This document shows, in pieces, positions 3,253 through 30,035 of a stretch of DNA of 64,000 bases. This stretch comes from Welwitschia mirabilis (Eukaryota). The notes beneath the pieces were generated by a model. It was not told where the DNA came from and ran no database searches. It saw nothing but the letters and a program-made list of their open reading frames with translations. The stretch lies in NCBI GenBank assembly GCA_051453625.1, contig JBOZIK010000001.1, forward strand, positions 44,061,536 to 44,125,535, read 5' to 3'. Each line of letters opens with the position of its first letter. Position 1 is the stretch's first letter. The translations under genes and the position numbers were made by a program.

Positions 3253-3446
3253 TGTGAGGTCCCGAAATCTTCAGTTGAAAATCTTTCAAACTCGATGCTA
3301 TGATATCAAATGTGATGTCCAAAATCTTTAGTTGAAAATCTTTCAAACTTGATGCTCTGATACCAAATTTGATGGCCTAATATTCTACAGTTGAAAATTT
3401 CTGTAAATTTGATGCTCTGATATCAAAATGTATGAGGGAAAGAGGA
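3253..3446 (-). mobile_element. End of a nested, inverted LTR of the element A family, with three tandem PBS+terminus units
   Basis: The minus strand reads three ~58-bp units TTTG(G/A)TATCAGAGCATCAAGTTTGAAAGATTTTCAACT...GGACATCACA and terminates GGGACCTCACA at 3253. The other side runs into an N gap. Confidence 0.75.
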
Positions 3447-5694: not shown

Positions 5695-7546
5695 TGTCAC
5701 ATCCAAAACTTAACCGAATTTAGAAAATCCTTTTTGCAAATATATGACTAATAGATTTACTTTNNNNNNNNNNNNNNNNNNNNNNNNNNNNNNNNNNNNN
5801 NNNNNNNNNNNNNNNNNNNNNNNNNNNNNNNNNNNNNNNNNNNNNNNNNNNNNNNNNNNNNNNNNNNNNNNNNNNNNNNNNNNNNNNNNNNNNNNNNNNN
5901 NNNNNNNNNNNNNNNNNNNNNNNNNNNNNNNNNNNNNNNNNNNNNNNNNNNNNNNNNNNNNNNNNNNNNNNNNNNNNNNNNNNNNNNNNNNNNNNNNNNN
6001 NNNNNNNNNNNNNNNNNNNNNNNNNNNNNNNNNNNNNNNNNNNNNNNNNNNNNNNNNNNNNNNNNNNNNNNNNNNNNNNNNNNNNNNNNNNNNNNNNNNN
6101 NNNNNAAAGTTTCATTTAATTTACATTTATTTGGTCGAGAGGCCATCCTCAGCCACTGAATTATCCAGGATGGCATTATTTATTTTTATTTTTGATTGTT
6201 TTTATTTTCAAAAACTAATAATAAATTAAAGGGAAGGGAACATAAATGACAATAAATTGAAGGGGGTTAGTTAAATGGCCAGAACAAGGTCACTCTATGG
6301 AGCAATGTTGGTGATATCTGTCTTCCTTTCATTTTTGTATTTCACTTTTGTTCCTTTCCTTTTTGTGTTTCGCTCATACGTGTTTTGCTTTTGTTCCTTT
6401 CATTTTTGTGTTTCTTCGCTTTTATTTCTTGACGCTTTTCCAAACCCTTGGTTAGGATTTCAGATTCCGTTTTTCTAAGGATTTACAGATTTTAGTTTTC
6501 ATGTGGCACCAGACCTGGGGTTTCAAATACTTCTTTTATGTCCTTTGCATGATTTGATGGAATACACCTTCAAAATTTTCTTCGCATGATATTTTTCTTC
6601 CAAGATTTGAGCATTTCTTATGTGTATGAAATCTCAATCTCTTTAAGAATGCGCCTTTGAAATAAATTTTAATCGTATTTTTGGCAGGGATATAAGATGT
6701 AGACGACTGCATTCCTGCATTAGCCTGATGTTCCAGATGCACGTCAAAATGCGCTGCCAAAGTAGTTTGCTACCCTGCAAAAATAACAACTACATTGCTG
6801 GAAAAAACCATGCGGTAGCTCCTGCAAATGTGCAATAGTGCATTAACTTTGATCAACGTGGACTTAGCTGCCAATGCAACGCCAGCCACCAGCATAACAC
6901 CAGCTGTCACCACAGATAAACTGACTGCCATGTCATTTTAAAAAAAATGAGTAATGGAATTTCATGGATTTTTCAAAAAAAATGAGTAATAGGAACATGC
7001 TTTGAAGAGAGGATTAAATGGTCAAAGCCTTCAAATATAAATGCTTTACAATGTAATAAAGTACATGGATGTCTATAGAAAAAGAAAAATTGAAGAATTC
7101 ACTCAAATTAATTCAAATACTCAANNNNNNNNNNNNNNNNNNNNNNNNNNNNNNNNNNNNNNNNNNNNNNNNNNNNNNNNNNNNNNNNNNNNNNNNNNNN
7201 NNNNNNNNNNNNNNNNNNNNNNNNGTGCCATTTAATGAATGAATAACATTTAATAGTCTAAATAACCTAAGTAATTTTATTTAATGATTAAATTAAAATG
7301 CAACTTATATGATTATATAAGACCAAGATTAAGACTTTCAACTTTAAATTTAATTACATAGAGAGGTTTTATATTTTGAGTATCAGAGTGAGTTAAATTC
7401 TCCAAACATAGAACTTTTGGGTTTTCACATTTGGTATCAAAGCAAGTTTAAGAAGATTCTCAACAGTGTAACTCTTAGACCCTTACATTTGGTATCAGAG
7501 TATCAAGTTTGAAGATTTTCAACTATAGAACTTTTAGGACATCACA
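5695..7546 (+). repeat. 3' LTR of element A
   Basis: TGTCAC...CATCACA, preceded by a purine-rich PPT. Its end matches 1-202. Contains two N gaps. Confidence 0.8.
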
Positions 7547-8589
7547 ACTGTCTTGTACTATTTTTATTGTAATGACATTATGAATCTCTTGAGGTTGAGG
7601 CTATCTCTTATATAGTCCATTTATAATTAAGTACTACTGAAAAGCATTGTTAGTTGTAGTTATGGAGGGGATGTAGGCTTTGATGAAATTTAATAATGTA
7701 GTTAGAACCTAATAACCCAAGAAATTTAAATTAGTAATTAAATGAATAATTAAAGGATAAGCCAGGAGCATTTAAGAAATATTTTTTTAATTTACAAAAT
7801 CCTTTGAATAAAAATACATCAAATAAGTTTCATCAAAAATATTTGTAAAGATATGATAACATTATTTTTGCTTATAAAGATATTAAGGATTTTTTTAAAC
7901 TAAATTAATATAAACTAGTATTATAGGATCTCATTAAATATGTTGCAGTTTAAACTAGAAAGCCACACTATAGAGAATATTTTAAATAATAAGATTGTAA
8001 AATAAAGAATCACAATACCAAATGAAAAAATAGTGTGTTGTGTCTCTACAGTTTTTTTAAACCCAAGAAAAAAAGATGCATAAATATAAATGCAATCAAA
8101 ATTTTATAGATAAAATATTCATTGCAATCAAAATAATTGAACCTAAAATATCTATAAAAAATAAAAGCTTTGAAGAGTTGTTGCAAATATTTGACAGGAA
8201 AAGAAATGCAACTTAGATTTCAACTGATTTCCTTTGGAAACAAATTCTTCTCTTGATTTGAAAAAGTCATGGTAGAAAAAAAACCAATGTTATTCTTCTA
8301 ATAGTAATAACATTCTTCTTCTTCTTACAATGTCAACATTCTTCTTACATCACTGTTCTTTTGACATTGTTTTCTTCGTTTCAGCTAATAAAATAATGTA
8401 ACACAAAATAGCTAGCTAGCAGCAAATTTTACCTCTTATGTCCTTACTTTATACTTCTTGATCATAAGTTATTTGCTTATATATAATAAATCATACAATG
8501 CAAAAATAGGTGGATCCCAAGTACTGGATCTAAATCAAATGCTAAAACTTCAAAAACATGAGCTTTCATATTCCACTGTATCCGGAGAA

Positions 8590-8705
8590 GAATCAAATGA
8601 AGTTGAAGCTGATTCTAATGAAATAGATGAAGTCAAAGCTAATCCTTATAAAATAGACAGAGTCAAAGCCCATTCTAATGAATAGAAAGAGTCAAGAATG
8701 ATCCT
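8590..8705. repeat. ~30-bp degenerate tandem repeat in the copia LTR
   Basis: About 4 units resembling AATGAAATAGATGAAGTCAAAGCTGATTCT. Also present at about 27305-27420 in the other LTR. Confidence 0.7.
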
Positions 8706-9000
8706 TATTTCCAAAATTTTGGTGGATGTACATGCAATCTAGTAGTAAGGAAATAAATGCAATAAGCATAATGAGTGCAGTTCTATCCAAGAAAGGCTAA
8801 AAAAATGTTTAATATCATAAAGGAAGAGAATTGAGATGTCAATAAACTAACTGACAAATGAATTTCATAAATGGAAGTCCTCTTTCAAATGCCAAAACCT
8901 ATATTCTTAACAATAAAAAGATAAGAATGCCAGAAGGGTGAAGGAGAGGGATAACATAACACAAATGAAGATATTGATGTTTCTTTGCAGAGGGTGAGAC

Positions 9001-9263
9001 TTAAGACTTAGTAGTGGAAGAATCATTATGGCCTAAAGGATGCTTTGTGGTGTCAATCATGTCATGCATTTCACTAATTGTCTATTCTCTTGTCTCATGT
9101 AGAAAAGATCATGCATCCTTCTTTTCTTGTTTCACCTTTGTCCTTGAATTATGGGCCACTCTAGAGGCCTTATTCTTTGCACACTATGAATTCTGCTTCA
9201 TGGATTGTCTCATATCAGAGGCCTTATAATAAACTCTCCCTTCATTTCTTGAGCTTTTCCCTA
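9001..9263 (-). pseudogene. Captured group-3 LEA (LEA_4-like) C-terminal fragment in the copia 3' LTR
   Basis: Translation with one frameshift: GKAQEMKGE..KASDMRQSMKQNS*CAKNKASRVAHNSRTKVKQEKKDA*SFLHETRE*TISEMHDMIDTTKHPLGHNDSSTTKS*. This fits the group-3 LEA pattern GKAQEK...QSAKDK.S...L.QTGEQ......D.VKHTLG. Confidence 0.72.
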
Positions 9264-9491
9264 AGCCTAAGAATATAAAATGACTTATATATTGTCTTTG
9301 GTATCCTAACCACTTCTAGAGCTATTATAATTTCGCTTGGATAACTCCTTTGGATTACTAACACGAGCATTTAGCATCCAATCCTTGCTTTGAATGTTAT
9401 TTTCGGAGCCATCAATCCAGATGTATTTGATAATGATTTTCTCAGTGCATTGAAAGATATTGAGGTTAAGTAAATCATTCAAAAAATACAT
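9264..9491 (-). pseudogene. GLN1: Captured intronless cytosolic glutamine synthetase (GS1) N-terminal fragment, codons 1-76
   Basis: MYFLNDLLNLNIFQCTEKIIIKYIWIDGSENNIQSKDWMLNARVSNPKELSKRNYNSSRSG*DTKDNI*VILYS*A, colinear with plant GS1 [76 protein letters not shown]. Confidence 0.93.
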
Positions 9492-9831
9492 GCTACATCT
9501 TTCTTCAATCAAATAAAGAACTCGAAATTGGCTGCTACAATTCCACCTTGTGCAGAGTTATGATATAGACATTAGACCACTATTGAAGAGGAAATATTTT
9601 AAGCTAATCTCTATTAAATTTTGATGTTTTAATGGAAATAAATAAACCAAAAGATGGAGAATCACTTAAAAAGTTTATAGCAGAGAGAAATAAAAGGAAT
9701 ACAGACATTCTACAAATGTATAAAAATGGAATGCAAGTTTGTGATTTTTCTTCAGCTGGGATTGAGGACATTATTAGGCTGGTGTCATGCAATGATTTCT
9801 TAATCCACTTTGATTTTTGCATGACACAGTA

Positions 9832-10180
9832 TGTTGGAATTTTCTTTGGGTAATTCCAACAATTTAATGCTAGTATGAATATAGAATAGATTTATTGAGT
9901 AAATAGAGTTAGTGGGTCAATTACAAAAAAGAAAGAAAATAGTTATTAAGTTAATAGAGTTAGTAGATCAATTACTAAAAAGAAGAAAAATGGTTATTAA
10001 CTTAGTATAGTTAGTTGATCTATTACAAAAAGAAGAAAAACTATTATTTCCTTTGTATGCCTATAAAAGACTATCTAGTTACATCAAATAAAATTGGACT
10101 CCCAGGTGGGATTCCATTCACGGGACTTCTTTTGGAGCAACAATTTTCTATTTAGTTTTTTTTCTCTCTTATTATTAACA
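9832..10180. mobile_element. 349-bp solo LTR inserted in the copia 3' LTR
   Basis: Absent from the homologous site in the 5' LTR (about 28405). Termini TGTT...AACA. TSD CAGTA (9827-9831) / TAGTA (10181-10185). Contains a 3x ~51-bp tandem repeat (about 9891-10041) and CCTATAAAAG. Confidence 0.85.
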
Positions 10181-10205
10181 TAGTAAATAATAGATACTAG
10201 GAGAT

Positions 10206-10357
10206 AATCATATTTTTGTAACTAATAAAAAGCAAGTTCAATTCCTCCGTAGTAAGTTTCACATCCAACTTGGTAACTTTTTTCATTGCATCCATTAATA
10301 ACACTTAGCTTGCTTAGCAGGTTTCACCATGTAAACATGATTTCCCCTCTCTGTCAT
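10206..10357 (-). pseudogene. Captured 14-3-3 N-terminal fragment (epsilon-group-like) in the copia 3' LTR
   Basis: MTERGNHVYMVKPAKQAKCY / MDAMKKVTKLDVKLTTEELNLLFISYKNMI versus canonical [51 protein letters not shown]. A short frameshifting deletion follows RY. Confidence 0.92.
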
Positions 10358-11089
10358 TTTCAAATCATAAGTAAAATTTCAGCTCTCAACAAGAGATCAT
10401 TCTCTGAGATTTTATTACATTATTATTGTTGTGTGAATAGGAAATAATAATAATATTATAATGAAGAGGTATTAAAAGGATATAGGATTTATTTAGGTGG
10501 TTTTAAGCAAAGTGAATGGGGTTCAATACATAAACGGTAAAATGAATATGTTGTAAACATAGTATATTATGTCAAATAATAATTGATAATGGATTAATGG
10601 GGTTGGATATTATGATGATTATGAGAATAAGATAATAATCAGGCCCATAATTATACATGTAATTATGCATTGTAATGATGATTTTGATTGCATAGGATTT
10701 TCTAGTTCTAAAGTTTAACCTACACATTTCCTAAACATATTCATGATGTCATTTCTCTTTTTCACCATAATGTGAACTCCTAAAAAAAACCTTGCCCTTT
10801 TAGGTTTTCAAAGAAAAAAGGAGTTGGGATGGGCTACATCCAACTAGCATAGTGATAAGTTGAATCATCACACTTGAGCTGGGCAGTGAGAGGTAGACTA
10901 ATTACAACATCATACCTATATGAACATAATAATACTATGAACTTAATAGCATTAAGATAAATTTAATGTAGTTATGGGAAAATACCAACAAACCCCCCTT
11001 TAACATTAAGGTTATAATTTATTATATGTGAAAATAAGTAGGAAGAAAGAAAGAGAATGTTACAAGTTTAGCTGTTACAACAACATTAT

Positions 11090-12129
11090 GTTATGAAAAA
11101 GATGAGCTACTAAATCCCATGACCTTAATGTCAAGGATATTCAACTAATCATGAAGTAACTCAGATCTACTTTTGTCTAATGCCTTTGTAAAAATGTTTG
11201 CAAACTGTGCATTTGATGGATAATACTATACTGAAATCAATCCATCCTTCACTTTTACATGAACGAACTAGTACCTCATATCAGTATGTTTTGTACATGC
11301 ATGTAGAACTAGACTTGTGGTAATAGCAATAGTTGATTAGCTATTACAATGAAGTGTAATTAGATCACATACTATAATAGTAAACTCAATAAATAACCAT
11401 TTAATCCACACAATCCATTAATAGGGTAAATAAACTGTTATGTACTCTGCTTTAATTATGGAAAGTGTCATACTTGATTGCTTTTTACTACATCAAAAGA
11501 ACAAACAATCACCAAGAAGCATTGCATAACCTATAGTGCTCTTTCTATCATCAAGATAACCTATTCAATCTACATCCACAAATTCTTCTAATTATATATT
11601 ATTACTAGATTTATAAAATAATCCATGATGTAATGTGCCTTTCACATATTTTAATATTCTTTTGATTACTAAAAGATGTGCATGTTTAGGGGCATTCATG
11701 AATCGAGAAGCAACACTAAGAGCAAATTGAATATCTAGTTGAGTAGTAGTTAGACATATTAAACTTTTAATCATAAAATGATATAAATAATCTTTAATAA
11801 AAATGATTATCCATGTCTCTAGTTAATTTTATATTGGTATCCATTGGATTAGAGATAGTTTACAATTATGCATTTCAAACTTTTAAAGCATGTCATGTTT
11901 AAATTTGAACTAGTTTAAGAAGATCCCATTAGGGAGTTGGTGAATTTTAATTCCAAGATAATAAAACAGCAAGCCAAGATCGATCATTTTGAATTCATAT
12001 TTCATATCATCATGAAATTGTCAAACCAAAGAATTATGTGTTCCTTCAAAGATAATTTCATCATTATAAATCAATATAAATAACATATGATGATTGATTA
12101 TTTTCTATATAAAGTAGTTTCAAAGGAAT
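11090..12129 (-). pseudogene. Copia RT C-terminal part and RNase H, decayed
   Basis: Motifs FKMIDLGLLFYYLGI, SLICLTTTQLDIQFALSVASRFM..P...H....KRILKYVKGT, TKHTDMRY and QFANIFTKAL. Confidence 0.92.
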
Positions 12130-12134
12130 ATTTT

Positions 12135-14644
12135 TTAATTTTCATCTTTTCATAACTTAAAGCTTTAAATGTTTCTCTAATACCAAAATGTAACATCTTA
12201 AATCTACATCTCAAAAATATTTAACTTGTAATAAATGAGCTAAAAGATAAAATTTACACCATTAGGACTTAAACCCTTAACTCCTTGTTTAATAGTAACT
12301 TATCTTAACCATCTAAGCTAAGTGTACACATAAAATTATTTTCATTATAAAGCATAAATAATCTATGGCCTTAATTACAAGTTATTATAATTTAACATGT
12401 TATAACTCAAGTTATGTTTCACAATTAAATAGCCTATAAAGCACAATTATAGATTTACTTCTTAAAATAACTTTTAGCAAGGAAGAGAAAACAACTTAAA
12501 ACTCTCATAATTTTCTTCAACAAAAGGCACATAAGTACATAAATCATAAATCTATAAATAATTCTTAATGTCAAATAAAATTGAGTTTTATAAATAACAT
12601 CATGTCAATAAATATTATAAGTTACTAGGACATCCAAGGTTCTTCAATTTTAACTATTATATATATATATCAAGTAAGGAACAACATGTAGGGGAAACTC
12701 AAATATTGTTACAACCACTAGCTCTTTCTAGCATCTTCATTTACACCGAGTCCTGCACATGCAAGTATGATGTGAGAACTATAACCTTCACATTTCTTAG
12801 TATGACGCATGGCAATGAATAGATAGGTATAGGATTTCTAAGTATAAAGTAAATAATTACAAGAATATCCAAGATGTACTACTAAAATAATCCAAAATGT
12901 ATTATCAAAAAAATCTGAGATGCATGACCTAAAAAATCCAAGATGTATAGTTAGAGTAATCTAAGAGTGTAATACCAAAATAATCTAAGAATTTCCCAGG
13001 ACTTTATTTTCATATTATCTTTTTTACTATTGATCTATAAAAATTTAAGTAATCTAGTTGCACACAATTAAGAGGGTTAAAATTATCATATTTGTGTACC
13101 TTTTTTTTCTTTTCTTTCTGGAGGCTCAGTTCTAATACCTTAGGACTCATACCATAGAGTATCACTCTCTGATGTTTGAATAATTGATTACCCTGGCCAG
13201 TTTTAATTCTTTTATTTAACAATATTAAATCATGGTCAATGGTTATTACAAGTCATATATAGATAATCCACAACAAGCTTGTCAACAAGGCTTAATCCAA
13301 ATTAGAGTTAACAAGATAGGTAAAGGTTTTGTGATGTATAAAACCCTAAGAAACTAAGATACAGAGGTTCATAATAAGAGGAATACTTGCAAACTCTAAA
13401 AATGATTTACAAGATACTAATGAAAGCTTTATGAAATATTTAAATCGTGCAAGTATTATAAGAAAAATTTGGAACCATGTAAGAAATAAAAAGAATATGC
13501 TAGAATTATACAATAATTAAATAAATTATTCTAGATCCATTCCCAAAATTGGACGAAGACTTTAAGTCTTTCAAGACTCTAATGCTTTTTATGCTTCAAG
13601 TTTTGAAATCACCAAGATTCAATAATAGAATATTTCTCAAAGATATGAAAATAAGAGTAGAAGTCAGTCCTATTCATAGCAAGAGGATGTAGAAATGTGA
13701 AGAGAGATGAAGACATTAAGAGGCATTATCAAGAAAAGAAGATGGTAAGGATTCTATAACCCTTAATCATTACCTTGTTTAGCCACTAGATGTATTAATA
13801 TTTCATCATAATAATAAATAATAAATGTTCAACATCCCACTACTACAATTATTATGATAATAAATTAAGATAAGCCACTTAGCAAGTAATTCCAATANNN
13901 NNNNNNNNNNNNNNNNNNNNNNNNNNNNNTGTTAAATAATAGAAATTGCAACATCATAATTATGAGTGTTACTTCGCATACACGACTAAGATAAAATATT
14001 AAAATAAACTAGCATAATGCATTCTAATAATTATAGCAATTAAAAGAGTAATTTACATGCAATAAAATAACAAAATAAGAAAATATAGTAATCATAATAC
14101 ATTAATGCAACAATTTCAAAAAAGAAAATAAAATAATATAACCACTAATTTAGTGACTAATTTAGTCACTAATTCAGCCACTAATTTCGCCACCAATTTA
14201 GTTACTAATTTAACCAAGGGGTTACTATAAAAATAATATTATTATATATGCTTGTTACAAAAAAGAAAAAACTTAAAATAATAATTATAGCATGAAAAAT
14301 TATTACAAACTAATCACATCTCAATAATAAAATAATAAATAGAGAATAAATAAAGAGTACAGTAATTAAATTAGCTTAATGGACTCCATAATAATAAAGT
14401 TTTGGCACATCCCAAGAAATTTATGAACATTATGCAATTCAAAAAAATAGAATGGAAAAAATATCTAATACATACATTTGAACAACTGTAGGCTATATTC
14501 TTTTTAATCGAGAAATTGAAAAAGCTTTTCTATCTTTTTCAAAGCTTTTGGAATCCCCTCAAATAAACCCAGTTTATTTTTAATTTATCTTTTACTTAAC
14601 TAATTAGGCTAAATATTTGGACCTTTAAAAATCTAGAGATGACA
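12135..14644 (-). repeat. 3' LTR of element B
   Basis: Colinear with 20678-22958. Contains a ~23-bp tandem array (about 12860-12990) and a 12-bp CCACTAATTTAG array (about 14142-14212). Confidence 0.88.
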
Positions 14645-14714
14645 TTTCTCCACCCCTTAAAAAGTTTCATCCTTGAAACTTGAAAAAAAAAAATCTTAGT
14701 TCTTTACCATGATA

Positions 14715-14920
14715 CATTTATTTTATATTTTCAAGTAGCTTCTGTTTTTGTCTCTCTTAATTGTTATACTTTATAAAGTTGAATTTATCTTCCTTTGAGT
14801 ATAGCTTTCTCTTGAATTAAAATTTTAATTGGTTAAACTTCAAATGTGCAGCTTAGTTCAATATCCACTTCTTAACTATCTCATTACAAATATCAAATTT
14901 ATATCTTTGGAACTTAATGC
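14715..14920 (-). pseudogene. Integrase C-terminal chromodomain remnant of element B
   Basis: EVDIELSCTFEV*PIKILIQEKAILKGR*IQLYKV*QLRETKTEAT* resembles Tekay ...LTYEEEPVRILDRKEKVLRNKVIPLVKVLW....EEATWE and lies just before the PPT. Confidence 0.65.
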
Positions 14921-17900
14921 AAAACCCATCTCTAAAGAACTTCAAAATGACTTGCTATAAGAAAATAACTTAAAATGATAAATAATATTTGGTTAAATAA
15001 ATCTTCCTTTAATGCCATGTAAATTATTAAATAAGGTGAAATTTTACCCATAAAACTTGTTAATCAATGATATTATTAATCATGATAAGTATAATACTAA
15101 TCACCCTTTGTGTTTGGAATGTTTAAGCCTCTACAAATTTTCTTCCTATTTTGTTATCACACTTTGTTGTTAATTGGCTTTTCTACTCTAATTGATAGTA
15201 GTGGAGGATGGTCCTCACATGAACACATGGCTTCTACAGCAAAAACATTGTACATACTTCTATACAAGTTATCTCACATTGTTTTGTTAATAATTGAAGC
15301 CAAATCTTCTTTCACTTTTCTTTTACTAAGATGGATAAGTGTTCTAATAGATCTAATGATAAATTATTTAATAATTTTAAAATCTATGCTAATTTCCACA
15401 TCCAAGAGCATTTCACCACCTAAATCATTTCATCAATTACAACTTCAAGAAGGCCTTACAAAGATGGGTTTGAAGACTTTTTCCACAAATAATATAAATA
15501 CTCCATTCCTTTACCTATTACTTTCCTATATATGCATTATACTCAAGTGGATAAACCTATATCTTATAAGTTCATACTTCCATTCCAACAAAAATGGAAA
15601 ACAAGATTCTATGAATACCAAGAATGAATAATCTAAAAATTATTTTTAATTAAAATGGGAATATCCAGTCAAAAAATAAATTTCCAAAATACATACTTTA
15701 GAAAAATATGGACATATTCCATACCAATTAAGATCTAACATGAAAGATATACAAGAATATAGAGAAAGAAAAACTTATTAATAATAATTAATAATCTTAA
15801 AACCTTAATACTAGAGGACATTGAAAAATATGATGAATGCAAACCAAGATCATGTTCATGGCTGATATTCTATAACGAAGCAAATGATAAAAAGGAACAA
15901 AATACCAATGGTTATCCTTCTCTTCATCTTCGAAGGCTTGATAGTATAAGAGAACTTTAAGGGAAGCACATTGCTATATCTTGTTTATAAGATTAACTAG
16001 AAAAGATGTGCTTTCTCTTTTTCAAGATACCTTTCAGCATATTCAAATCCAGATATAAAATAACCTAAGGAAAAATTCAAAAATTATTTTACTAAGAAAT
16101 ATAAAATTTTTTATCTTGAACTCTCACATAATCAAATATGAAAATATGGATTTCAAGAAAATATAAAATATTATTAAAATACTATATAATGTGTATTATA
16201 CAAGGCATGCTAAATATGGTGCATATTTAATGAATAATATTATGAAATATGTTGTGGAATTAGAATGGGTATGATGGATTAATAAGAGAATCAAATGAGA
16301 TAAGAGTTAACACTAATAATATTGATAGGAACCAAGGTTTAACTATCAAGCNNNNNNNNNNNNNNNNNNNNNNNNNNNNNNNNNNNNNNNNNNNNNNNNN
16401 NNNNNNNNNNNNNNNNNNNNNNNNNNNNNNNNNNNNNNNNNNNNNNNNNNNNNNNNNNNNNNNNNNNNNNNNNNNNNNNNNNNNNNNNNNNNNNNNNNNN
16501 NNNNNNNNNNNNNNNNNNNNNNNNNNNNNNNNNNNNNNNNNNNNNNNNNNNNNNNNNNNNNNNNNNNNNNNNNNNNNNNNNNNNNNNNNNNNNNNNNNNN
16601 NNNNNNNNNNNNNNNNNNNNNNNNNNNNNNNNNNNNNNNNNNNNNNNNNNNNNNNNNNNNNNNNNNNNNNNNNNNNNNNNNNNNNNNNNNNNNNNNNNNN
16701 NNNNNNNNNNNNNNNNNNNNNNNNNNNNNNNNNNNNNNNNNNNNNNNNNNNNNNNNNNTTAACACTAATAATATTGATAGGAACCAAGGTTTAACTATCA
16801 AGCATCAAGGCCCATTAATAGCAAGAATACATAGAGATATATTCAAGATATGTGACCTTTAATCCTACTTTCATGATTATTAATATCTTCTCCTCCTATT
16901 TGGAACTTAAGAATCCTAAATATGAGATTTAATAATCTCAAAATGTAATAACCATTGAATTTCATTTCTTACTTTTCATAATACAATGACTATAATCAAT
17001 ATAAATAATAAAATAAGATGCTATACAAAACGTAAATGAAGCAATTACAAAGGATCAAAAAAATAAATCAAGAATTAGTAAAATCATGTTTTTCAATTCA
17101 GGAATCTAAAGAATTAAATAACCTAGTTATACTGATTCAATGATGCATTTCTAAGATGATTGTAAAAGAAAACAAGCTCTAAAATATGAGGAGGACATGT
17201 AATGAAAATCACATATATAACTATTAAAATAAGTTTGACAAACTGATACATGTTATTTAGTAAAAGAGCCTCCTAAAAAAAAGAAAAAGAAAAAGAAAAA
17301 CATAACTGTAAGCAACAATAAGACATTGAAATATTCATAAAATACACTACCATCTAGAGTCTTTCTAAATAAACATAAATATTTATTTATAGAATTCTAG
17401 ACATTAAATCTTTAGAAGAAATAATTAAATCATTTTTAAGTTTAGAATTTTATTTTAAATTGATATTTTTTAAAGGAAATGCAATAGAATTCTATGAGAG
17501 ATGAGGAAGTCAATTACCTAATTCCCTTATACTTTTAATTAAAGATCACATAATGCAAGGGCCATGATATAGAGTCAAAATATACTAGGCAATGTACCAT
17601 ATAAACCAATAAGAATGACAATGAAAGTCATTTCCATTTTATGGAATTCTTAGTTAGGATTCTAGTAAATGTTGTAAAGTAAATTTGTGTTTGAATCAAT
17701 AGGAATTGTAAGATGGAGAAGCCATATATGATTTGAACAAGGGTACATACTTCTATAATCATAACATTAATTATCTTTACATTGAATCATAACTACAACA
17801 TCAGAATGTCAAAAATTTGACTACCCTACAGTGCCAGAGTAATCATTACCCTTTCTCTCTTAAATAGATCAATGGTTTTCTAATCAGTAATAAGTCAGTT

Positions 17901-20677
17901 TCAACATAGAAGTTTCAAACAGATGCTTGGAATACAAATCTATCTTGAAATTGAATGCAAGTTGAAGTAAAAAGGAATCATGTAAAATCAAATACATTAG
18001 CATTATATGCTTATTTAAGGCATAACATGCTCATATAAAGCTTACTAACTGGGAACCTTTAACATCGTGGAAAAAGGCATCTTGTACTACTATGCTTTCT
18101 TGAGCTTGGCTGAAAGACTCTTCTAATGATTAGGAAATGTTACAATCCTAATCATTTAATTAGAGATTTAATTTACATTTAATATTTTTCATCCCATTAA
18201 AATATCCACATGTATAGAATAATCACAGAATTCTTGGTAAAGAATTAAACTTTAGTTCATGCTACTTTATTAAGCCTTGTATAGTGACAGTTCAATACAT
18301 ACTTCAGGATAAACCTATTAAAGTATTGTAAGGAATCTGCAATAAATTTATAATAATAAAAACTGATGTTTCTACTATTTTCTAATTAATCTACCTAGTC
18401 ATATTCAACATTTCAATGATATGAGATTTTCATTACATATTTCTCTTAAATCCTTGAGTTAAGAGCTTATAATAGTGTTGTACTTAAGAATAAAATAATT
18501 CTTTTCTTTACATCCTATAAATGGTTTTGAATGCACATGAAATTTCCAAAGGTTTCATGATCTCCATTCCTGATGATATGTTTCTATGAAAAACATCAAT
18601 GATAACATTTTACTATCTTCTTCCAACAACATTACTTAGCTTATTACTTCTCTTTTTACTTCCCTTATTGTCATTACTTTAGACTCCTAATAGAATGTTG
18701 AATCTTTTAAAGGAAAGAACCATGGCAAGGGGACAATAATGCAAGAGGACCCCAACATGTAAATCACAGTAACATGGGTCATAGAAGTGAGCTAGATGTT
18801 CAAAATTCTAAATAAAAAGTACCACTAAAATTGTAAACATTGAATACTATACCAACCCATTATTTTTCCTTTCTGTTTATTGTCTATGTTGTAGTATTTT
18901 ATTTCTTGAAAGATACAAGCTTACCGGTAACTCCATTGTAAAGCCTATTCTTGGCAAAATCAGTACCAGTCTGGTTTTACCACAAAGTCCATCAGAAGGT
19001 TGTAAGTTAGTACTTTTAATTAAAATGATCGATCAACACTAGGTTTTGGGGAAGCTCACTCATGTCTTATAGAGAAATAACTTTTCTAGGCATTGTGTGT
19101 TTTCTTTAAATCTTACTCTTATGTTTTTATATGATTTAAAGTATGTTGCTTAGATTTTCTTCTAATGTTTTAATAAAGTTCAATTGTAATTATATTGTAG
19201 AGATATTAGAAGTTATAAACCCTTATTCTATAGATAGTTATAGGTTGGTACATGCTTGGAAGAACTAGTAAAGGAGAATATTCAACTATTGTAAATAGAG
19301 GATATAAAGAAGCAAGAAAAAAAAGGAGTTTTTTATTGATATCAAAAATGGTAGACTTCTATTAACCACCAAAAACAAATGCAATATTTGATGCTACAAT
19401 TAAATAGCATTGTGTGGTCTATTTTTTCCAAGAATTATTAACATCCTTGATTAAGATGTTTTATCATACTTTAGCACTTATTAATTATCTTGGTTAAAGT
19501 CTTAAAGACTAGTTGTTACAAAGATGTAGAAATGGTGTAGTGAATTGATTCGAGGTGAGCAAAGCAGTAGCACCAAAGTCGATTCCAACCATGCTCAATG
19601 GATTTTCACTAGACATTAATATTATCATATCATTCCTTGATAATATAGAAGAAAAATATCTTCTTAACATGTCTAAATTAGAATCATAAAATTTGTAACT
19701 TGGATATCCATATTGCAAGGCATCTCCTCTAAATGAATAACTCAAATTCTGACACCATGAAGAAATCATAGATGTCTTGCAAGATCTTACTTCCTCATAC
19801 AATGCAGACTTGTAAGTGAAAGGTTCTATTGTGTGGAGCTGAAAAGTTAGTATTTCATATACCTATATCTCTATCTATCTATTATTTCTTTATATGTGTT
19901 TTAGAATTGCTAAAATCCTAACTTCTCTTCTAGCTTGAAGCTTGCTACTAGTTGTCATAATGATGAGAATATGAGGATTTCTTATAGCTCAAAACTTAAG
20001 TCCTTCATGTATTCATTCAATCTAGTGCAAGAGATTTTAGGAATTGCTAATGCATTTTAAGACCAAATTAATCCCTTATTTCACTTGAAAGTTCTATGAA
20101 ATATAGCCAAGATTCTTCTAATCATTATTAATTTCAAAAACTCATATACCTTTCTATAATCTTAACAAAATCCTAATTATGTTCCCTTTTAATTTCTTAC
20201 ATTTATTGTTCTTTTGATTCTATTAAAGAGCATGTAGCATATAAAATATAAGAAATGCTATATTAATGAGTATTAAGCAATGCCTAAAAGGATATACTAG
20301 AATATTTCAAATACCACAATGTTAATACTTGAATTATATATCACTCACTCTCTTAGATGTTCTTGCACTCATAAAATTCCTTCATATAGCGTCATCAGAG
20401 TAGTGTTACATGTAAATAATACCTTTTAATCCATCATATTATTTTAGTAGATTAACATAATCATCACATCATTAGTTGCCATTTGGAACTTATAATTATT
20501 ATGACATATTAATATATATTTCTAGGTTCATTATGCTTCGGCTTTTTCCTTCATAACATATGCCCATTACGCAATTATGCCTAATGAAACCATAACCTAG
20601 GCTCTAATGTTAAAATGTATAATGGCTTCACAACCATTATTCCTAGTGAAATCAAAACTTAGACTCTAATACCAAAA

Positions 20678-22958
20678 TGTAATATCCATCTCTTCACAAC
20701 CTAAAGCTTCAAATGTTACTCTGATACTAAAATGTAACACCCTGAATCTACATCTCAAAAATCTTAAACTTGTAACAAATAAGCCCAACAATAAAATTTA
20801 CACTATCAAGACTTGAACTTTTAACCTCTTGTTTAATAGTAACTTATGTTAACCATCTAAGCTAAGTGTACACATAGATTTATTTTCATGGTAAAGCATA
20901 AATACTTTGTTGTCTTAAGTATAAGTTATTATAATTTATCATGTTATACCTTAAGTTATGTTTCATAATTAAATATCCTATAAAGCACAATTATAGATTT
21001 ACTTTTTAAAATAGCTTTTAGAAAGTAAGAGAAAGTAACTTAAAACTTTCATCATTTTCCTCAACAAAAGACATGTAAGTATATTACTCATAAATTTGTA
21101 AACAATTCTTACTACTAGATAAACTTGACCTTCATAAATAACATCGTGTTAATAAATATTACAAATTACTATGACATCCAAGGTCCTTCAATTTTAAGTA
21201 CCACATGCATCAAATAAAGAATAACATGAAGGTGAAACTAAACTCTTATTACAACCACTAGTTTTCATCATCTTCAATTGCAACAAGTCCTGCACATGCA
21301 AGTATGATGTAAGAAATATAACCTTCATAGTTCCCAGTATGGCCCACAGTAAGGAATAGATAGGTATAGAATTCCTAAGCATAAGGTAAGAAATTACAAG
21401 AATATTTAATTTATATTATCAAAATAAGTTAAGACATATTGCCAAAACAATCTAAGATGCATTGCCAAAACAATCCAAGATGTATAGTCAAAATAATCCA
21501 AGAGTGCAATGTCAAAATAATCCAAGAAGTGATCAAATTCTCATTTTCATATTATCTTCTCTACTATTGATCCATAACAATTTAAGTAATTTAGTTACAT
21601 ACAACTAGGAGGGACAACATCATCATATTTGTGCATATTGTTTTCCTTTTCTTCCTAGAGGTTAGGTCTTGCTACTTGGTACTCATAATAGAGAGTATCA
21701 TTCTCTAAGATTTAAACAACTAGTTACCCTAGCTAGTTTTAATTCTTTTATTTAACAATCTGAAGTCATGACCAATGGTCATCATAAGTCATATACAGAT
21801 AATCCATGATAATCTTGTTAACAAGTCTTAATCCAAATTGGGGTTAACACAATGGGTAAAGGTTTTATGATGTATAAGATTCTAAAAAACTAAGACAAAA
21901 TAGGTTTACAATAAGAACAAGACTTACAATCTCTAAAAACAATTTGTAAGATAATAATGAAAGCTTTATGAAATACTTAAATCATGCAAGTATTACGAGA
22001 CAAATTTGGAACCATGAAGAAATAAAAAAATATATGCTAAGATCATATAAGAATTGAAGAAATTATGCTAGGGACATACTCAAAATTAGATGAAGACATC
22101 AAGACTTTCAACACTTCAATGCTTTACAAGCTCCAAGTTTTTAAATCAACAAGGTTCAATAACATAATATTCCTTAAAGATATGAAAATAAGAGGAGAAA
22201 AAAGTCCTATTTATCATAAGAGGATTAAAGGATGTGAAGAGACACGAGAGTATGAAAAGACACCATTATGAAACGAATATGGTAAGAACTCCATAATCAT
22301 TATCTTGTCTGGGTGCATTAATATTTCATTATAACAATAAATAATAAATGTTCAGCATTTTGCTACTTGCAATTATTACAATAAGGAATTAAGATAAGCC
22401 ACTTAGTAAGTACTTCCAATAGCCATATAAAAATTATTTTTCATAATCTATAAATATTAAATAATAGAAAATGCAACATCATAATTAAATAATAGAAAGT
22501 GAAACATCATAATTATGGGCATTACTTAGCATGAACTACTAAAATAAAATATTAACATAAACTAACATAATGCATTCTAATAATTATAACCATTACAAGA
22601 ATAATTTTCATGTAATAAAATAAGAAAGTATACTAATCATAGGATATTAATGAAATAATTATAAAAAAGGAAATAGAATAATATAACTACTAATTTGATC
22701 ACTAATTTAGGTAAGGAGTTACTACAAAAATAATATCATTAATTATGTCAATTATAAGAAAAAAATCTAAAATAATAATTGTAGCACAACAAATTTTAAA
22801 AAGCAGATACATCTCAATAATAAGATAATAAATAGGGAATAAATAAAGAATATAATAATTAAATTAGCTTAGTGACCTGCATAACAATAAATTTATTTTA
22901 ATTTATTACTTAAATAATTAGGCTAAATTTGTGGACCTTTAAAGATCTAGATGTGACA
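20678..22958 (-). repeat. 5' LTR of element B
   Basis: TGTCACATC...TATTACA on the minus strand, followed by TTT and TGGTATTAGAGT. Confidence 0.88.
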
Positions 22959-25900
22959 ATTTTTTATAAGATTAATTTTTTAAATATGTATCAAGACATG
23001 CAAACCATGCTCTAGGGGCTTGTTTTAATTCATAAAGTGCCTTCCAAAGTTAATAAATGCTCTTTTTTTACCCTAGATTTTGAAACCCTTTAGTGGATTA
23101 ATGTATACCTCTTCATCTAAGTAGCCATTTAGAAATGCTAATTTAACATCCATTTGTCAAACCTTCATATGAATTTTACACGCATATTCTAAAAAGGCTT
23201 GAATAGATTCTAAATGTATTACTGATGCATATGTTTTTCCATAATCAACTCCTACCTCTTGTGCATAATCCTTAATAAAAATTCTTACTTTATGTTTGTT
23301 AATTATGTTATCAAGATTGTACTTTATATGAAAGATCCAGTTTGTTCCAATTAAATGTTTATTAAAAGGTAGTTTTACTAATTTTCATCTATTATGATTT
23401 TTTATTTGACTAAATTCCTCTTTCATTACCTTTATCCAATGAACAAAAGAAGCAACATTTTATATTTAATTAGATCAATAGAAGCATTTAAGGAGATAGA
23501 TTTAGCACACAAGTTTATTTCATTATTGTTCTCACGGAGTTCATCTAAAGATGTGATGTTTTCATTTTTCCTTTGATTTTTCAGATTTTATAGTTGTTTT
23601 CTAGTTTTAACTCTTGTAGGTAGAGGTTCATGAATGTTGCTTTAATCATGTGATTTTAAAATTCTTGAGCCTTTCTTAGGTGTGGTTATACTAGATGATG
23701 TGCTAGTTATTATTTCATTTTTAGAATCACTGCTAAAGTCATCATTACTTTACATTGGATGAATTTGATTTTCTAAGAAATGCACATTACAATTTTTAAT
23801 TATTTTTCTATCACTCAATCTAAAACATATATATGCCTTGCTAATGGATGAGTATCTAATAATACATTCATCTAATTTAACATTTAATTTATCATTTATA
23901 GGTTTAACATTTTTAACATATCATTTTAACCCAAAAATTTTAAGATGTGCTACATTAGGATTTTTTCCAATTTTTATAAGGAGTTAAATCAACTAAATGC
24001 TTTATGATTTAAGATTTTGTAGATAGTTGTGGCATTTATTGCTTTTGTCCAAAATTCATTTTCTAAGTTAGCTTCAAGAAATAATGTTCTTATCATGTCA
24101 AGTGATGATCAATTCTTATGCTCAGTTATCCCATTTTGTTGTGGTGTATAGGCAATTATTTATTGATGTATAATACCATTTTTAACTAGGTATTGTGTGA
24201 GTTCTCTAGAAAAAACACTCCAAATCTATCGGTGCATAGATTTTTTATATTCTTGCTTGTTTATTTTTTAGTCCATGCTTTGTATCTTTTAAAGTATTCA
24301 AATGCTAGAAATTTAAATTTTAGAAAATAAATTACACATAAGTATGAACAGTCGTCAATGAAGTTATAAACTATTAACTTTCATTAAAAATAAGTGTATG
24401 CATGGAATCACAAATATCTACATGTATAAGTGAAAGTTTTTGTGATATATGTTCTATAGATGGAAAGGATTTTCTAGCTTACGTTTCTTTTATACATGTT
24501 TCATAGCTATCTATTTTTTCGATTCTCAAATGTGGTAACTTCCTTCTTGAACTTTTTCTTTAACATCATTTCAATTTATATTAAGGATGCATGTCCTAAT
24601 CTTTTATTCCATAACTAAAAATCATTTATGTTTCAAATTAATGTAGGTTTAAAGTTCATCTTGTAAATATTATTTGATGTTCCCTTAACTTCTAATGTTG
24701 AACCATCCTTTTTTAAGATGCACTTTCCTTCCATAAATTTCATCTCAAATCCTTTACATTCTAATTAATCAAGGCTAATCAAGTTGTATTTTAATCTTAG
24801 TACATAGATGACATCATCAATAGTGATTTTATTTTCCCTTTCATCCTTAATGATGATGGTTCAGTTTTCACTAATATTGACAATTCCATCTCCTTCAAAT
24901 CTTATTGGAGCTCCTTTAAAATTTTTAGATGATTGAGAAAAGTTCTTTTAATATGTCATATGATGTGAACAACCATTATCTAAATATCATAAGTTATCAT
25001 TTGTGGCTAAAAATATGAATGGTTTTAACTCTTTCTATCTTTCTCAATAATTGTAACAAATGACAAGTGATCTTGTTCTTGTTGTGATGTTTTATCTTAC
25101 TTCTTATTATCCTCCTATTGATTATTTACTATAAAATCATTCATTGGCATTTCATAATCTCTCATTAATGATTTATAAATTTTCCATGGGTGTTCTATTT
25201 TTTGACAGTAGTGACATACTAGTGACTTATTATAGCCTTATTATGTAGTCCATTGGTTTTGATTATATATGTTTATGTGTGTAAATTTCCCCTTCCTCTT
25301 GTGTTTTAAAATCCTCTACCTCTCACGTTCTGTTGCTATAAATTATTTTAGTTAAGATGCTACCCACTTCCTTGATTATTTAATTGGAAGTGTGATGGAT
25401 TTCTTCCTCTACCTCTTCCTCTAAAATTCATACCTCTAAAGGTTATTCCTCTTTATTATGTGTTTTGAAGCTTCCTATTTGCTATATTGGCTCCCTCTAA
25501 AGTTAACTGCTCTTTACTTGTAACAAGTACCCTAAGATCTTTCTTTTATTTCTCCATTAATCTTAATTCATATTACACTAGTATACTTGTTAACTCATCA
25601 ACTGTAAGAGTGCTTAAATCCATAAAGTTTTCTATTATGACTGCAATTTGGTCATTAGTTTGTGTTTAAGATTCTTCAAACTTTTAACACCTTTNNNNNN
25701 NNNNNNNNNNNNNNNNNNNNNNNNNNNNNNNNNNNNNNNNNNNNNNNNNNNNNNNNNNNNNNNNNNNNNNNNNNNNNNNNNNNNNNNNNNNNNNCACCTT
25801 TTTCTTTTCTGAAACTGTTTGTCCTTGTTCCTCAATTTATTTTGTAATGTCTTGAATTTGTTGTTTGTATTCTTATATTCCCTCATTTTCTTTCATTTTG

Positions 25901-26250
25901 ATTTTTTTAAATTATGCCCTCCAATATTAAAGTTTTACTTTCCTTACCTTGGTTTAATTCTTATAAATAATATCTAAGTCATTTCAAAGTTTAAGCCCAC
26001 TATTATAGTGTTGAATCTTTTTGAATTCTGAGTTTAGCATGCTTGTGTGAATGATTATCATTAGTTTACTATCATCAACCTCTGCTCTATTGTAATCCTT
26101 TTTATCCTTATCTGTGATTGGAAGTGGAATTAGTTCAAAATCTATTTGCATTTTGTTCCACAATTCTTGTTATTTAAGATACCTTTCCATTCTAGCCTTC
26201 CAAATGTCATAGTTTTTTAGATTGAAATCTAGCATCATTCCCTTTTCCAT
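22959..26250 (-). pseudogene. Copia gag-protease-integrase-RT (N-terminal part), decayed
   Basis: gag MEKGMMLDFNLKNYDIWKARMERYLK*QELW; protease YLDNGCSHHMT (about 24960-24990); integrase TFIDD and AYTPQQNGITEHKN (about 24115-24155); RT DVKLAFLNGYLDEEVY and LYELKQAPRAWF. Many stops and frameshifts. Confidence 0.93.
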
Positions 26251-27704
26251 TTTGATTATGATGTGATTTAATAGATTGTGTAGTTCAGATCTTTATTAAG
26301 TAACAAATTTCATATTATTTCATGTTGTTATTTGTTATTTCCTATTCATCCTCTAAATTTGATTTTCAAATGTGTGGTTCTGATACCAATTATAGGTTTT
26401 GATGAAATCTAATAATGTAGTTGGGACCCAATAATCAATAAAAGCTAAATAATTTAGTAAATGCATAGTTAAGTACAAAGTAAAAGAATTCAAGAAAATA
26501 TTTGTTTAATTTACAAAATCCTTTTGAATAAAAGTACTTCAAATAACTTTGATCAAAAATATTTGTAAAGATATCATAACATTATTTTCAATTATAAGGG
26601 TATTAAGGATTTTTTAACTAAATCAATGTAAACTAGTATTATATATTTCTATTAAATATGTTGTAGTTTAAAATAGAAAGCCAAACTACAGAGAATATTG
26701 AAGTAATAGGCCGTGAAATAAATAATTACAAGACCAAATGCAAAAATTGTGTGTCGTATCCTCATAGTTTTTAATCCTAAAAAAATGCATAAAAATAAAT
26801 GCAGTAAAAATTCTATAGATAAAATACAAATCACATTAGAATGATTGAAACTAAATAATCTATAGAAAATAAAAACTTCAAAGATTTGTTGTAAAGATTT
26901 GATAAGAAGAGAAAGCAACTCAGATTATGACTGATTTCCTTTGGCAACAAATTCTTCTCTTGATTTGAAAGACTCACAGTATCAAAAAACTAGCATTCTT
27001 CTTCTAATAGTAATAATGTTATTATTTCTTTTACAATGTTAACATTCTCCTTACATTAGTATTCTTCTAATAGCATTCTCTTCCTTTTAGCTGGTAAAAT
27101 AATGTTAACATAAAATAGCTGAGCAGTAGAAATTTCACCTCTTAACTTATGTCCTCACTTCATACTTTTTAGTCATAGAATTTTTTTTTGCCTATTTATA
27201 ATAAATCATACAATGCAAAAATAGGTGAATCCAAAATATTAGATCTAAATTAAATGCTAAAGCTTTAAAAAGATGAGATTTCAAATTTCACTAGAGCCAA
27301 AGACAAATCAAATGAAGTCAAAGTCGATCTTGACAAAATATATAGAGTCAAAGCTAATTCTAATGAAACAAATGAAGCCAAATCTAATAATGGCAAATAG
27401 ACAGATTCAAAATTGATCCTTATTATCAAATTTTAATGGATGTGTGCATAATCTATTAATGAGAGCTTAAATGTAACAAGCACAACTAGCATAGTTATAA
27501 CACTTTAGGAAGGCTAAAAGAATGCTTAATATCATAGAGGAAGAAAATTAAGATGTTAAGATACTAACTAAAAAATGAATTTCATTAATGAAAGCCCTCT
27601 CTCAGATACCAAAACCTATATTCTCAACAACAAAAAGATAAGAATGCCAGGAGGGTAAAAAATAGGGATAACCTAGCATAAATAAAGGTACTGATGTTTC
27701 TTTG

Positions 27705-27834
27705 CCTTTATTCCTCAATTATGGACCATTCTTAAGTCCTTATTCTTTACACACTATGCATTCTAATCCACATATTATCTCATATTAGAGTCCTTTTGTT
27801 GTGACTCTCCCTTTATTTCTTAATCTTTTCCCTT
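27705..27834 (-). pseudogene. Second copy of the LEA fragment, 3'-deleted
   Basis: KGKD*EIKGESQQKDSNMR*YVD*NA*CVKNKDLRMVHKLRNK. The segment equivalent to about 8990-9135 is missing. Confidence 0.68.
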
Positions 27835-28063
27835 GACCTAAGGATATAAAATGACTTTGTTATAATCTCTTATAGCCTATCTAGTGCTAGAGCCATCGTA
27901 ATTCCACTTAGGTAAATCCTTTTGATTACTAATAGGGGCATTTAGACTTTGCCCCTTACTTTGAATTTTGTTGCCAGAGCCATCAATCCATATGTATTCA
28001 GTAATGATTTTTTTGAGTGCATTCAAAGATATCGAGATTAAGAAAATCATTCAAAAGAGACAT
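27835..28063 (-). pseudogene. GLN1: Second copy of the intronless GS1 N-terminal fragment
   Basis: [18 protein letters not shown](+1)[56 protein letters not shown], with intact EYIWI.GSG and [11 protein letters not shown] motifs. Confidence 0.95.
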
Positions 28064-28425
28064 GATTTCTTATTTCTTTAAATAAACAAAGAACTCCAAA
28101 TGGACTGTCAGAATTTCACCTTGTGTAGGTTTATGATATAAACATCTAGCCTCTAATAAAGATAAAATAGTCTGAACTAATCTTCATCATGTTTTGATGT
28201 TTTAATGATAATAAATTAATCAAAATACATAAAATCACTTAGAAATATTATAGTGGAGGAGAAATGAAAGGAATATGGACATTCTGCAAATGTCTAGAAA
28301 TGGCATTCAAGTTTGTGTATTTTCTTTAGCTAGGATTGAGAGCACTATTAGACTAGTGTTATGCAAGGAAGTCTTAGTCCACTTTAATTTCAGCATGATA
28401 CAGTAACTAATAGAGACCGCTAGGT

Positions 28426-28575
28426 AATCATATTTTTGTAACCAATGGAAAGAAAGTTCTGTTCCTCCATAGTAAGTTTCATGTCCAACTTGGTAACCTT
28501 TTTTATTACATTCATCAATAATGCTTGGCTTGCTCAATGATTTTTGCCATATAGACATAATTTTTCCTCTGTCAT
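28426..28575 (-). pseudogene. Second copy of the 14-3-3 N-terminal fragment
   Basis: NYVYMAKIIEQAKHY / MNVIKKVTKLDMKLTMEEQNFLSIGYKNMI, with the same deletion after RY as the first copy. Confidence 0.92.
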
Positions 28576-28856
28576 TTTCAAATTAGAGGTAAAATTTTAG
28601 CTCTTAATAAGAGATCAATCTATGAGATACTATCACATTCTTATTATTGTATGAATAGGAGATAAGAATAATATTATAATTAAGAGATATTAAAAGGATA
28701 TACGATTTATTTAGGTGGACTTTATGTAAAGTAAATAAATTTAAGTAAATGAAGGGTAAAAAAGTATGTTGTAAAAGAAATGTGTTATGTCAAATAATAA
28801 TTGATAATGGACTAATAGGTTTGGATATCATGATTGTTTTGAAAATAAACAATAAT

Positions 28857-30035
28857 TGTTGCACTGCCTAATTATATGTATTTTATAGGGTATTTTAAGT
28901 ATTTTTACATGACATTAGATAAGTTTATACTGAGTTTCAATAATAATGGAGAGCTAAGTTAAATATCATGAAAACATTTAAATGCATTTTAAAGCAAATT
29001 ATAATACTTCCTATCTAAAGAAGCAATTATATAATCGAAGAGACTAATCAGACATAAGAAATACTTTAGAAAATCCCATCATCCACCTCATTATCTAGAT
29101 GACTATATGGACAACAGAAACACTTATGTTGATAATGATGCTTGTTAGACTAATCTAGCAACTAATGTAGAACTTATATAATATGTCATCGTTTCCTATA
29201 ACATCAGGACAACCAACAGGATGACGCCTAAAAGTAGCACTTAATCAAACTTCATCAAACTTTCACCATGTGTCTTTAACATTTTTGTATGGCTATTAGG
29301 GTTTTTACCGTGCCCGATAGCATTTGCTATTTTTAGAGTCTATTTTATAATAAATATTTTATTTACCTTTGACTTAGATTTTATCTTTTTTGACACCAAA
29401 AATTCTCATGATAAAAGATCAAAGAATAGGAGGTCCATCCTTTATTATTGCAGAGAGACATCTCATTAAGATGTAACTGCTTTGTAATATAGATGTTGGC
29501 TTGGCTTAACCAAAACTCTATTTTTCTTTTCATATCATTGGTTAAATGCATCTCCCTTATGGTTTATGTTGCTTTTCATTCTATGATAGCTTTATCTAAG
29601 ATATAGATCATGAGGAAAACCTTTGTTACGATTAACATTATTAGTTTAGATGCATTACATTTCATTTTCTAGATTAACTTTACCTTGTTTTCATGTTATA
29701 TTCAATGTACCTAATAGCTTAGGTTTTTCTTGATCTGATGATGGCTTTTCTTGATTAATCTAAGTTATATAGGATCAATCTCTAAAATATAACTTACATC
29801 TCATTTGTGTAGTATGTTTATTTACATTATTATTTTGCATTATTCTTCTACTTATATATTACATAAGTATTTTGTTTTGAAATTAATTCTTTTTCTTCTC
29901 ACCTTTTCCTTTGATAGAATTATGATATTTAGGTCACTCTAATCTATATTTTTGTTTTGTATTATGCAATATATATTTCTATGATTTTCAGGATTTATTT
30001 AAGATGTAACGTTTACATAAATACATGTCATAACA
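28857..30035 (+). repeat. 5' LTR of the Athila-like element
   Basis: TGTTG...TAACA, colinear with 41657-42810. Confidence 0.9.

Follow-up and report, generated by a model that had tools for sequence, protein, structure and literature searches.

How does the 5′ end of one plant mRNA come to be joined, without a shift of frame, to the 3′ end of another, and why should the same joint be found twice? The window analyzed here (the whole 64,000-nucleotide stretch of Welwitschia mirabilis DNA, AT-rich plant DNA with assembly gaps) contains two diverged copies of such a joint, in each of which sequence from GS1, the cytosolic glutamine synthetase of plants, runs directly into sequence that the initial annotation had assigned to an LEA protein. 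We refer to the copies as A and B and to the downstream part as LEA-like; the coordinates of all features are collected in Table 1.

Table 1. The degenerate Ty1/copia element, its nested element, and its captured host sequences, in order of position within the window.
Feature	Positions	Strand	Remarks
3′ LTR (copy A) of degenerate Ty1/copia element	7674-10639	-	direct repeat with 26393-28856
LEA-like C-terminal fragment, copy A	9001-9263	-	stop TAA 9003-9001; 1 nt missing at 9232/9233
GS1/LEA-like junction, copy A	9261-9269	-	TAG GCT TAG
GS1 fragment, copy A	9264-9523	-	at least 32 nt of 5′UTR, ATG 9491-9489, codons 1-76
Insertion private to copy A	9832-10181		350 bp, very high-copy repeat, three 51-bp tandem units at 9878-10030
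14-3-3 N-terminal fragment, copy A	10182-10357	-	ATG 10357-10355; PDB, Pfam, and RNA reads
copia internal region, 3′ part	10640-12135	-	RVT_2 end at 12092-11852
Nested LTR-type element	12136-22894		repeats 12136-14401 and 20680-22894, 76% alike
copia internal region, 5′ part	22895-26376	-	gag, Pol_BBD, integrase SH3, RVT_2 4-145; Pfam
5′ LTR (copy B) of degenerate Ty1/copia element	26393-28856	-	direct repeat with 7674-10639
GS1::LEA-like chimera, copy B	27706-28063	-	ATG 28063-28061; truncated by 147-bp deletion
GS1/LEA-like junction, copy B	27832-27840	-	TAG GTC AAG
14-3-3 N-terminal fragment, copy B	~28385-28575	-	ATG 28575-28573

The second part of the question has a structural answer: the two copies lie in the two LTRs of a single retrotransposon. 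In a self-comparison, the repeats that contain copies A and B are 78.7% identical and 21.3% different over 2445 aligned positions, with 346 transitions and 176 transversions (K2P 0.258). Between them, a read-through translation of the minus strand matches DUF4219 (2.4e-6), Retrotran_gag_2 (3.2e-5), Pol_BBD (7.2e-14), SH3_retrovirus (1.1e-12), and profile positions 4 to 145 of RVT_2 (E = 3.3e-21) in Pfam; the RVT_2 profile then resumes at positions 158 to 238 (E = 2.3e-10) directly after the inner repeat pair, and this end of pol lies directly upstream of copy A on the minus strand. The domain order on that strand (gag, Pol_BBD, SH3_retrovirus, and RVT_2 in two parts) is the canonical copia order, and every one of the coding frames is broken by stops. 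Just 2 to 3 nt past the 5′ LTR on the minus strand, at 26388-26377, is a primer-binding-site-like sequence, TGGTATCAGAAC, which we take to be a tRNA-Met complement motif. The polypurine tract is weak, and no matching 5-bp repeat was found as a target-site duplication for either candidate LTR start. The direct-repeat pair, the copia domains that it encloses, and the primer-binding-site-like sequence bear out the initial annotation of both repeats as LTRs, and the element is a Ty1/copia element on the minus strand whose reverse transcriptase is split by a nested element. The nested element is either non-autonomous or fully decayed, since a Pfam search of both its strands returned no domain; its repeats are as diverged as those of the host copia element. 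Assuming 1.3e-8 substitutions per site and year, insertion of the copia element dates to roughly 10 My ago.

Several observations touch on the extent and surroundings of the LTRs. A 1.17-kb block (28857-30024) adjoins the 5′ LTR and has no counterpart in the 3′ LTR, leaving the extent of the 5′ LTR ambiguous. This block recurs at 41657-42799, where it ends in ...CAACA followed by unrelated DNA, and where it lies directly beside a copy of the pol end (42808-43163, matching 10632-10988 at 84%). The true LTR may be 3.6 kb long, its 3′ copy having lost the block between short TTAT repeats; alternatively, the block represents a related family, whose LTR it would be. Around the second occurrence of the block (38035-45186), the minus-strand frames contain no Pfam domain. 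A short dispersed repeat of 75-85% identity occurs at 1-202, 3253-3427, and 7330-7546, with one copy just outside the 3′ LTR. In the LTR tail at 8120-8640, RNA depth is low (0.1-2.3) in all three RNA runs, DNA depth is raised to 70 in the bin 8432-8535, and a plus-strand frame encodes a long acidic stretch; the tail may be another stretch of captured or repeated sequence.

That the 5′ half of the chimera is GS1, as the initial annotation had it, is borne out by structure-linked sequences in both copies. Copy A (9491 to 9264) matches residues 2-88 of the plant GS1 chain 7v4i with E = 8e-14 (phmmer, PDB) and also matches the GS1 structures 4is4 and 2d3a, and copy B (28050 to 27706) matches plant GS1 with E = 3e-18 (PDB). 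In both copies, the similarity ends at about residue 77, after ...VILY(P/S)-Q-A. GS1 mRNA reads of the same organism map to 9432-9494; beyond this interval, the reads run on as AEYVWIGGSG at one end and, at the other, as 5′UTR that fits 9523-9500 at 19 of 24 positions (by eye). Only residues 1-76 are present, and no catalytic domain of GS follows past the junction; the captured piece is a fragment and not a GS gene.

The GS1 fragment runs through its 5′UTR, its ATG, and 76 codons uninterrupted by an intron. Among 178 plant GS1 genes described in PMC7177731, a structure of 12 exons is dominant, with a CDS of about 1071 bp. Because 76 uninterrupted codons are set against a 12-exon family, the fragment almost certainly extends over positions at which introns once lay and derives from spliced RNA, the comparison being with the gene structure of the family at large rather than with Welwitschia's own parent gene. 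The mRNA origin claimed for this half of the chimera therefore holds up.

Past the join, a different mRNA takes over. Reads of a second mRNA (runs X17 and X18) cover approximately 9233-9263 and all but stop there, depth falling to 0.3-0.7 in the bin 9264-9367, which places the upstream limit of homology to the second parent at the join. The loose end of these reads encodes QQKASDMRQ, fits 9225-9204 of the window at 20 of 22 positions (by eye), and is in frame leading to the TAA of copy A. Thus, the two halves derive from two different expressed mRNAs and, since the loose end of the reads fixes the frame of the second parent, that parent was joined to GS1 in the reading frame of its own mRNA. 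Across the join, copy A encodes S*A*GKAQEMKGE and copy B encodes P*VKGKD*EIKGE (asterisks are stops), and the frame runs through unshifted in both, just as had been annotated. The two parents may share CAG GCN (Gln-Ala) at this place, the candidate microhomology of the initial annotation.

The frame is unshifted at the join and is interrupted elsewhere. Relative both to copy B and to the parental mRNA reads, copy A lacks the single nucleotide noted in Table 1; copy B has 1 nucleotide too many near GS1 codon 17, and the 147 bp (8989-9134 of copy A) that hold the C-terminus and stop are deleted from it. With a 1-nt indel in each copy and the deletion in copy B, neither copy retains a single continuous frame, and the ORF of about 163 codons originally proposed is not there to be read in either. 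The LEA-like part does have its own stop in copy A, as had been noted, but that TAA is off-frame from the GS1 ATG.

What kind of protein did the second parent encode? Its annotation as an LEA gene is probably right, although the evidence is divided between the two copies and between methods. Three kinds of search with the downstream part came back blank: i) Pfam, with the minus-strand frames of both LTRs, returned no LEA family at E <= 1, LEA_4 (PF02987) included; ii) the PDB returned nothing at E <= 10; and iii) word-indexed protein searches, at near and at longer lengths, returned no scoring candidate. A HMMER search against 1.84 billion representatives gave two matches in all, both to repeat-rich proteins whose Pfam assignments are unrelated or retroviral-protease, and we rejected both.

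Group-3 LEA proteins are built on an 11-residue motif, given as TAQAAKEKAGE in PMC6559209, and we asked how well the downstream part follows an 11-residue pattern of residue classes, scoring each copy at its best register against 20000 shuffles. In copy A, where the register had been spotted by eye before the test, 38 of 86 residues match the class pattern, compared with 27.3 ± 2.1 in shuffles (about 5 SD), a score reached by 1 of the 20000. In copy B, 15 of 42 residues match, which 6071 of the 20000 shuffles reached and which is not significant; nor is the score of a control frame. The residue classes follow Dure's description. The C-terminal stretch of the downstream part may resemble the ends of D-7/LEA76-type proteins.

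A less probable, though by no means negligible, reading keeps the join and changes the parent, which would be some other small hydrophilic protein rich in Lys, Gln, and Ser. The blank database searches and the lack of a significant pattern in copy B speak for such a protein; the group-3 type of periodicity in copy A, some 5 SD above shuffles, speaks for an LEA gene. So does the distribution of the parental reads, which are found in both oligo-dT runs of one study and are absent from the third run, suggesting that the second parent is expressed condition-specifically. We therefore continue to regard an LEA gene as the probable parent and retain the term LEA-like.

The chimera is not the only host sequence in the LTRs. 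In both, about 700-850 bp upstream of the chimera and likewise in sense orientation, there is a fragment of a 14-3-3 gene that the initial annotation had missed. It matches 14-3-3 epsilon in the PDB with E = 5.3e-5, and Pfam family PF00244 with E = 0.0021 in copy A and 0.0016 in copy B (18.1 and 18.5 bits, compared with a gathering cut-off of 33.2), the Pfam match covering profile positions 15-47 only and not the full nine-helix domain. The strongest RNA signal on the LTR falls here, at 10207-10343, where reads are up to about 90 deep per first-mate orientation. These reads overlap the window in part, and their loose ends (MTTEKER, EQAERYDEM, ERYEEMVDS, and GSRRASWRI) are the N-termini of two paralogues. 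The piece is thus an N-terminal 14-3-3 fragment, identified by the PDB match and the mRNA reads, and the LTR is a mosaic to which three or more host mRNAs contributed.

Between the 14-3-3 fragment and the chimera, copy A also carries an insertion that is absent from copy B in the self-comparison. Summed DNA contig depth over the insertion is 1e3 to 2.6e4, compared with about 8-14 alongside, which assigns it to a repeat or satellite family of very high abundance. It is touched by RNA reads as well.

We consider it likely that the mosaic arose by capture at the RNA level, much as in maize Bs1, through template switching by a Ty1/copia reverse transcriptase onto host mRNAs. While copying the U3 side of the element RNA, in which the mosaic presumably lies, the reverse transcriptase would have switched, presumably inside a virus-like particle, to co-packaged host mRNAs and then back again. 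Read in sense, the product would have contained a 5′-end piece of a 14-3-3 mRNA, some 600-700 nt of other sequence, and then the chimera, in which the GS1 5′UTR, ATG, and codons 1-76 are followed directly, with the frame kept, by the final ~86 codons and the stop of the LEA-like mRNA. Fragments of 5′ ends that reach the start codon and, for GS1, at least 32 nt of 5′UTR would fit a forced switch near the end of a template. From its place in the LTR, the mosaic would have passed into both LTRs when the element next replicated. The copy analyzed here then inserted, took the nested insertion, and saw its captured pieces decay neutrally. A route of this kind, "abnormal template switching" between co-packaged RNAs, is reviewed in PMC13317346. 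Host-gene sequence in an element, in sense and with introns apparently missing from the GS1 piece, is what marks a gene capture, and here all three pieces (GS1, 14-3-3, and LEA-like) are on the sense strand of the element. The template switch between two mRNAs that had been proposed at the outset is too simple for an LTR that also contains a 14-3-3 piece.

We find it rather improbable that a LINE-type reverse transcriptase made a chimeric retrocopy of GS1 and the LEA-like mRNA by a template jump, and that this retrocopy later entered, as DNA, the LTR of an ancestral copia element, whose replication then carried it along. PMC2104539 describes chimeric retrocopies that LINE reverse transcriptase produced by jumping between templates, and in such retrogenes a 5′ segment from one mRNA likewise adjoins a 3′ segment from another directly, so that the joint itself fits a LINE origin equally well; copy B even has an A-run at about 27200, some 500 nt past the position of the stop, in which 10 of the last 11 letters are A. 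Past the LEA-like stop, however, no A-rich tract is common to both copies (copy A has a short interrupted run), and no flanking direct repeat was seen, whereas chimeric retrogenes of LINE origin stand free, with poly(A) at the end and a target-site duplication on either side. The 14-3-3 fragment, in the same orientation and 700-850 bp away, would moreover have to be explained by another insertion, independent of the first.

Capture at the DNA level is very improbable, whether by a nested Helitron or Pack-type element or by ectopic recombination or gap repair with genomic pieces. Helitrons and Pack-type elements often mix fragments of several genes, as PMC12477314 and PMC13317346 relate, but the GS1 piece is intron-free from its 5′UTR through 76 codons in a family that mostly has 12 exons (PMC7177731), and all three pieces share the orientation of the element. 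Chance similarity and misassembly we reject outright, given GS1 matches of E = 8e-14 and 3e-18 in two copies that are 23% diverged and, from an independent DNA run, a 1379-nt contig that spans 8483-9861 with 6 differing letters.

RNA-level capture by the Ty1/copia element, our preferred explanation, invites comparison with known systems. Maize Bs1, like the element described here, is an LTR retroelement with pieces of three host genes that are unrelated to one another, all in sense and two of them fused in frame. The captured pieces of Bs1 sit in its internal region, whereas those described here lie inside the LTR, and because they do, each element carries the mosaic twice. Capture via an RNA intermediate is the accepted mechanism for Bs1, and the Bs1 hybrid gene is both transcribed and translated, according to PMC13317346; in contrast, the frame described here has 11 stop positions and indels, and no RNA read spans its junction.

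Surveys of gene capture in maize, rice, and sorghum document the same phenomenon, which is common there: PMC2774510 reports 425 maize elements with gene fragments, representing at least 189 captures, and PMC13317346 gives 1343 transduced sequences in sorghum. Our element holds three genes, whereas none of the 425 maize elements holds more than one (PMC2774510); a mosaic of three genes within an LTR is accordingly uncommon, although the supplementary tables of these surveys may list similar cases. The LTRs of BARE-2 and Veju acquired foreign sequence by a switch between co-packaged RNAs (PMC13317346, PMC1950507), but the donors were other retrotransposons or unknown sequence, whereas the donors here are host coding mRNAs joined in frame. 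A literature search turned up no paper describing the combination of GS1, 14-3-3, and LEA-like sequence in an LTR. Gene capture by LTR retrotransposons is well documented and multi-gene elements are rare; captured pieces that lie inside the LTR, and are doubled at every replication, are little described. If our explanation is correct, the locus would be a clean natural record of serial template switching in which one switch landed in frame, and it is a useful illustration of how exon shuffling by retroelements can start; it created no live gene and opens no new question.

We wish to stress that the chimera described here is a dead pseudogene. Its two copies together have 11 stop positions: three TAGs common to both LTRs (9308, 9269, and 9186), four stops in copy A only (9287, 9263, 9111, and 9084), and four in copy B only (9251, 9207, 9195, and 9147). 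The initial annotation held that most stops sit at Gln codons. Five of the 11 are former Gln codons (copy A has CAA or CAG at three of the stops private to copy B, and GS1 has Gln opposite two of the shared TAGs, 9308 and 9269), but four are not (9287, 9263, 9147, and 9111), and the TAGs at 9186 and 9084 are putative Gln positions only. Decay from C to T at Gln codons is thus supported as the source of many of the stops. Because three TAGs are common to both LTRs, the shared stops would by parsimony predate insertion, the frame having already been broken at that time; it is also possible that they arose in parallel in the two LTRs, by C-to-T change at CAG, a CHG methylation context.

The divergence of the two copies tells the same story of neutral decay. 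Between-copy identity is 75-79% in every segment, gene-derived or not, and since the chimera has diverged as much as non-genic LTR, it has decayed neutrally. Differences within GS1 are distributed over the three codon positions as 15, 14, and 24 of 76 each, which is not a significant departure (chi-square about 3.4, 2 df, calculated by hand). In the 63 nt of GS1 covered by mRNA reads (9432-9494), copy A, copy B, and the mRNA agree at 51 sites; 4 changes are private to copy A, 4 are private to copy B, and at 4 sites neither copy has the letter of the mRNA. Where copy A differs from the GS1 mRNA at 8 sites, copy B keeps the mRNA letter at 4. Such a pattern is what a single captured piece should show after decaying separately in two copies.

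Placed RNA reads come from the parental genes and not from the chimera locus. In runs X14, X17, and X18, of which about a quarter each was read and in which reads were placed at 80% likeness, the window received 434, 313, and 408 reads, respectively; nearly all of these (432, 311, and 407) lie only partly on the window, and just 2, 2, and 0 are at least 95% alike, which is how we know their origin. In the same portions of the three runs, RNA depth is zero in the bins 8640-9159 and 9576-9783, and the search for junction-spanning reads that the initial annotation had called for found none, nor any joint at the RNA level. The run index lists no RNA run that contains the stretch. Judged by read counts, divergence, and stops, the chimera is neither expressed nor under selection in the data at hand, in which the mosaic as a whole is ancient, neutral, and silent.

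We accordingly think it very unlikely that the LTR mosaic once worked as a chimeric gene of the Bs1 type, propagated by the retrotransposon, or that it serves today as a source of small RNAs. Were the latter true, small RNAs from the three pieces would cross-regulate the GS1, 14-3-3, and LEA-like parent genes. The same unlikely reading allows for younger copies, still intact, at other places in this genome or in related ones.

As to abundance, the chimera has a summed DNA depth of about 8-14, compared with about 4 for the contig of the locus itself; the element family therefore looks low-copy, and amplification of the mosaic is seen only as the two LTRs. Runs labelled as a second organism (organism B) contain as much as 0.78 of the 31-mers sampled from 8800-9700, indicating that the locus is near-unchanged in two labelled taxa.
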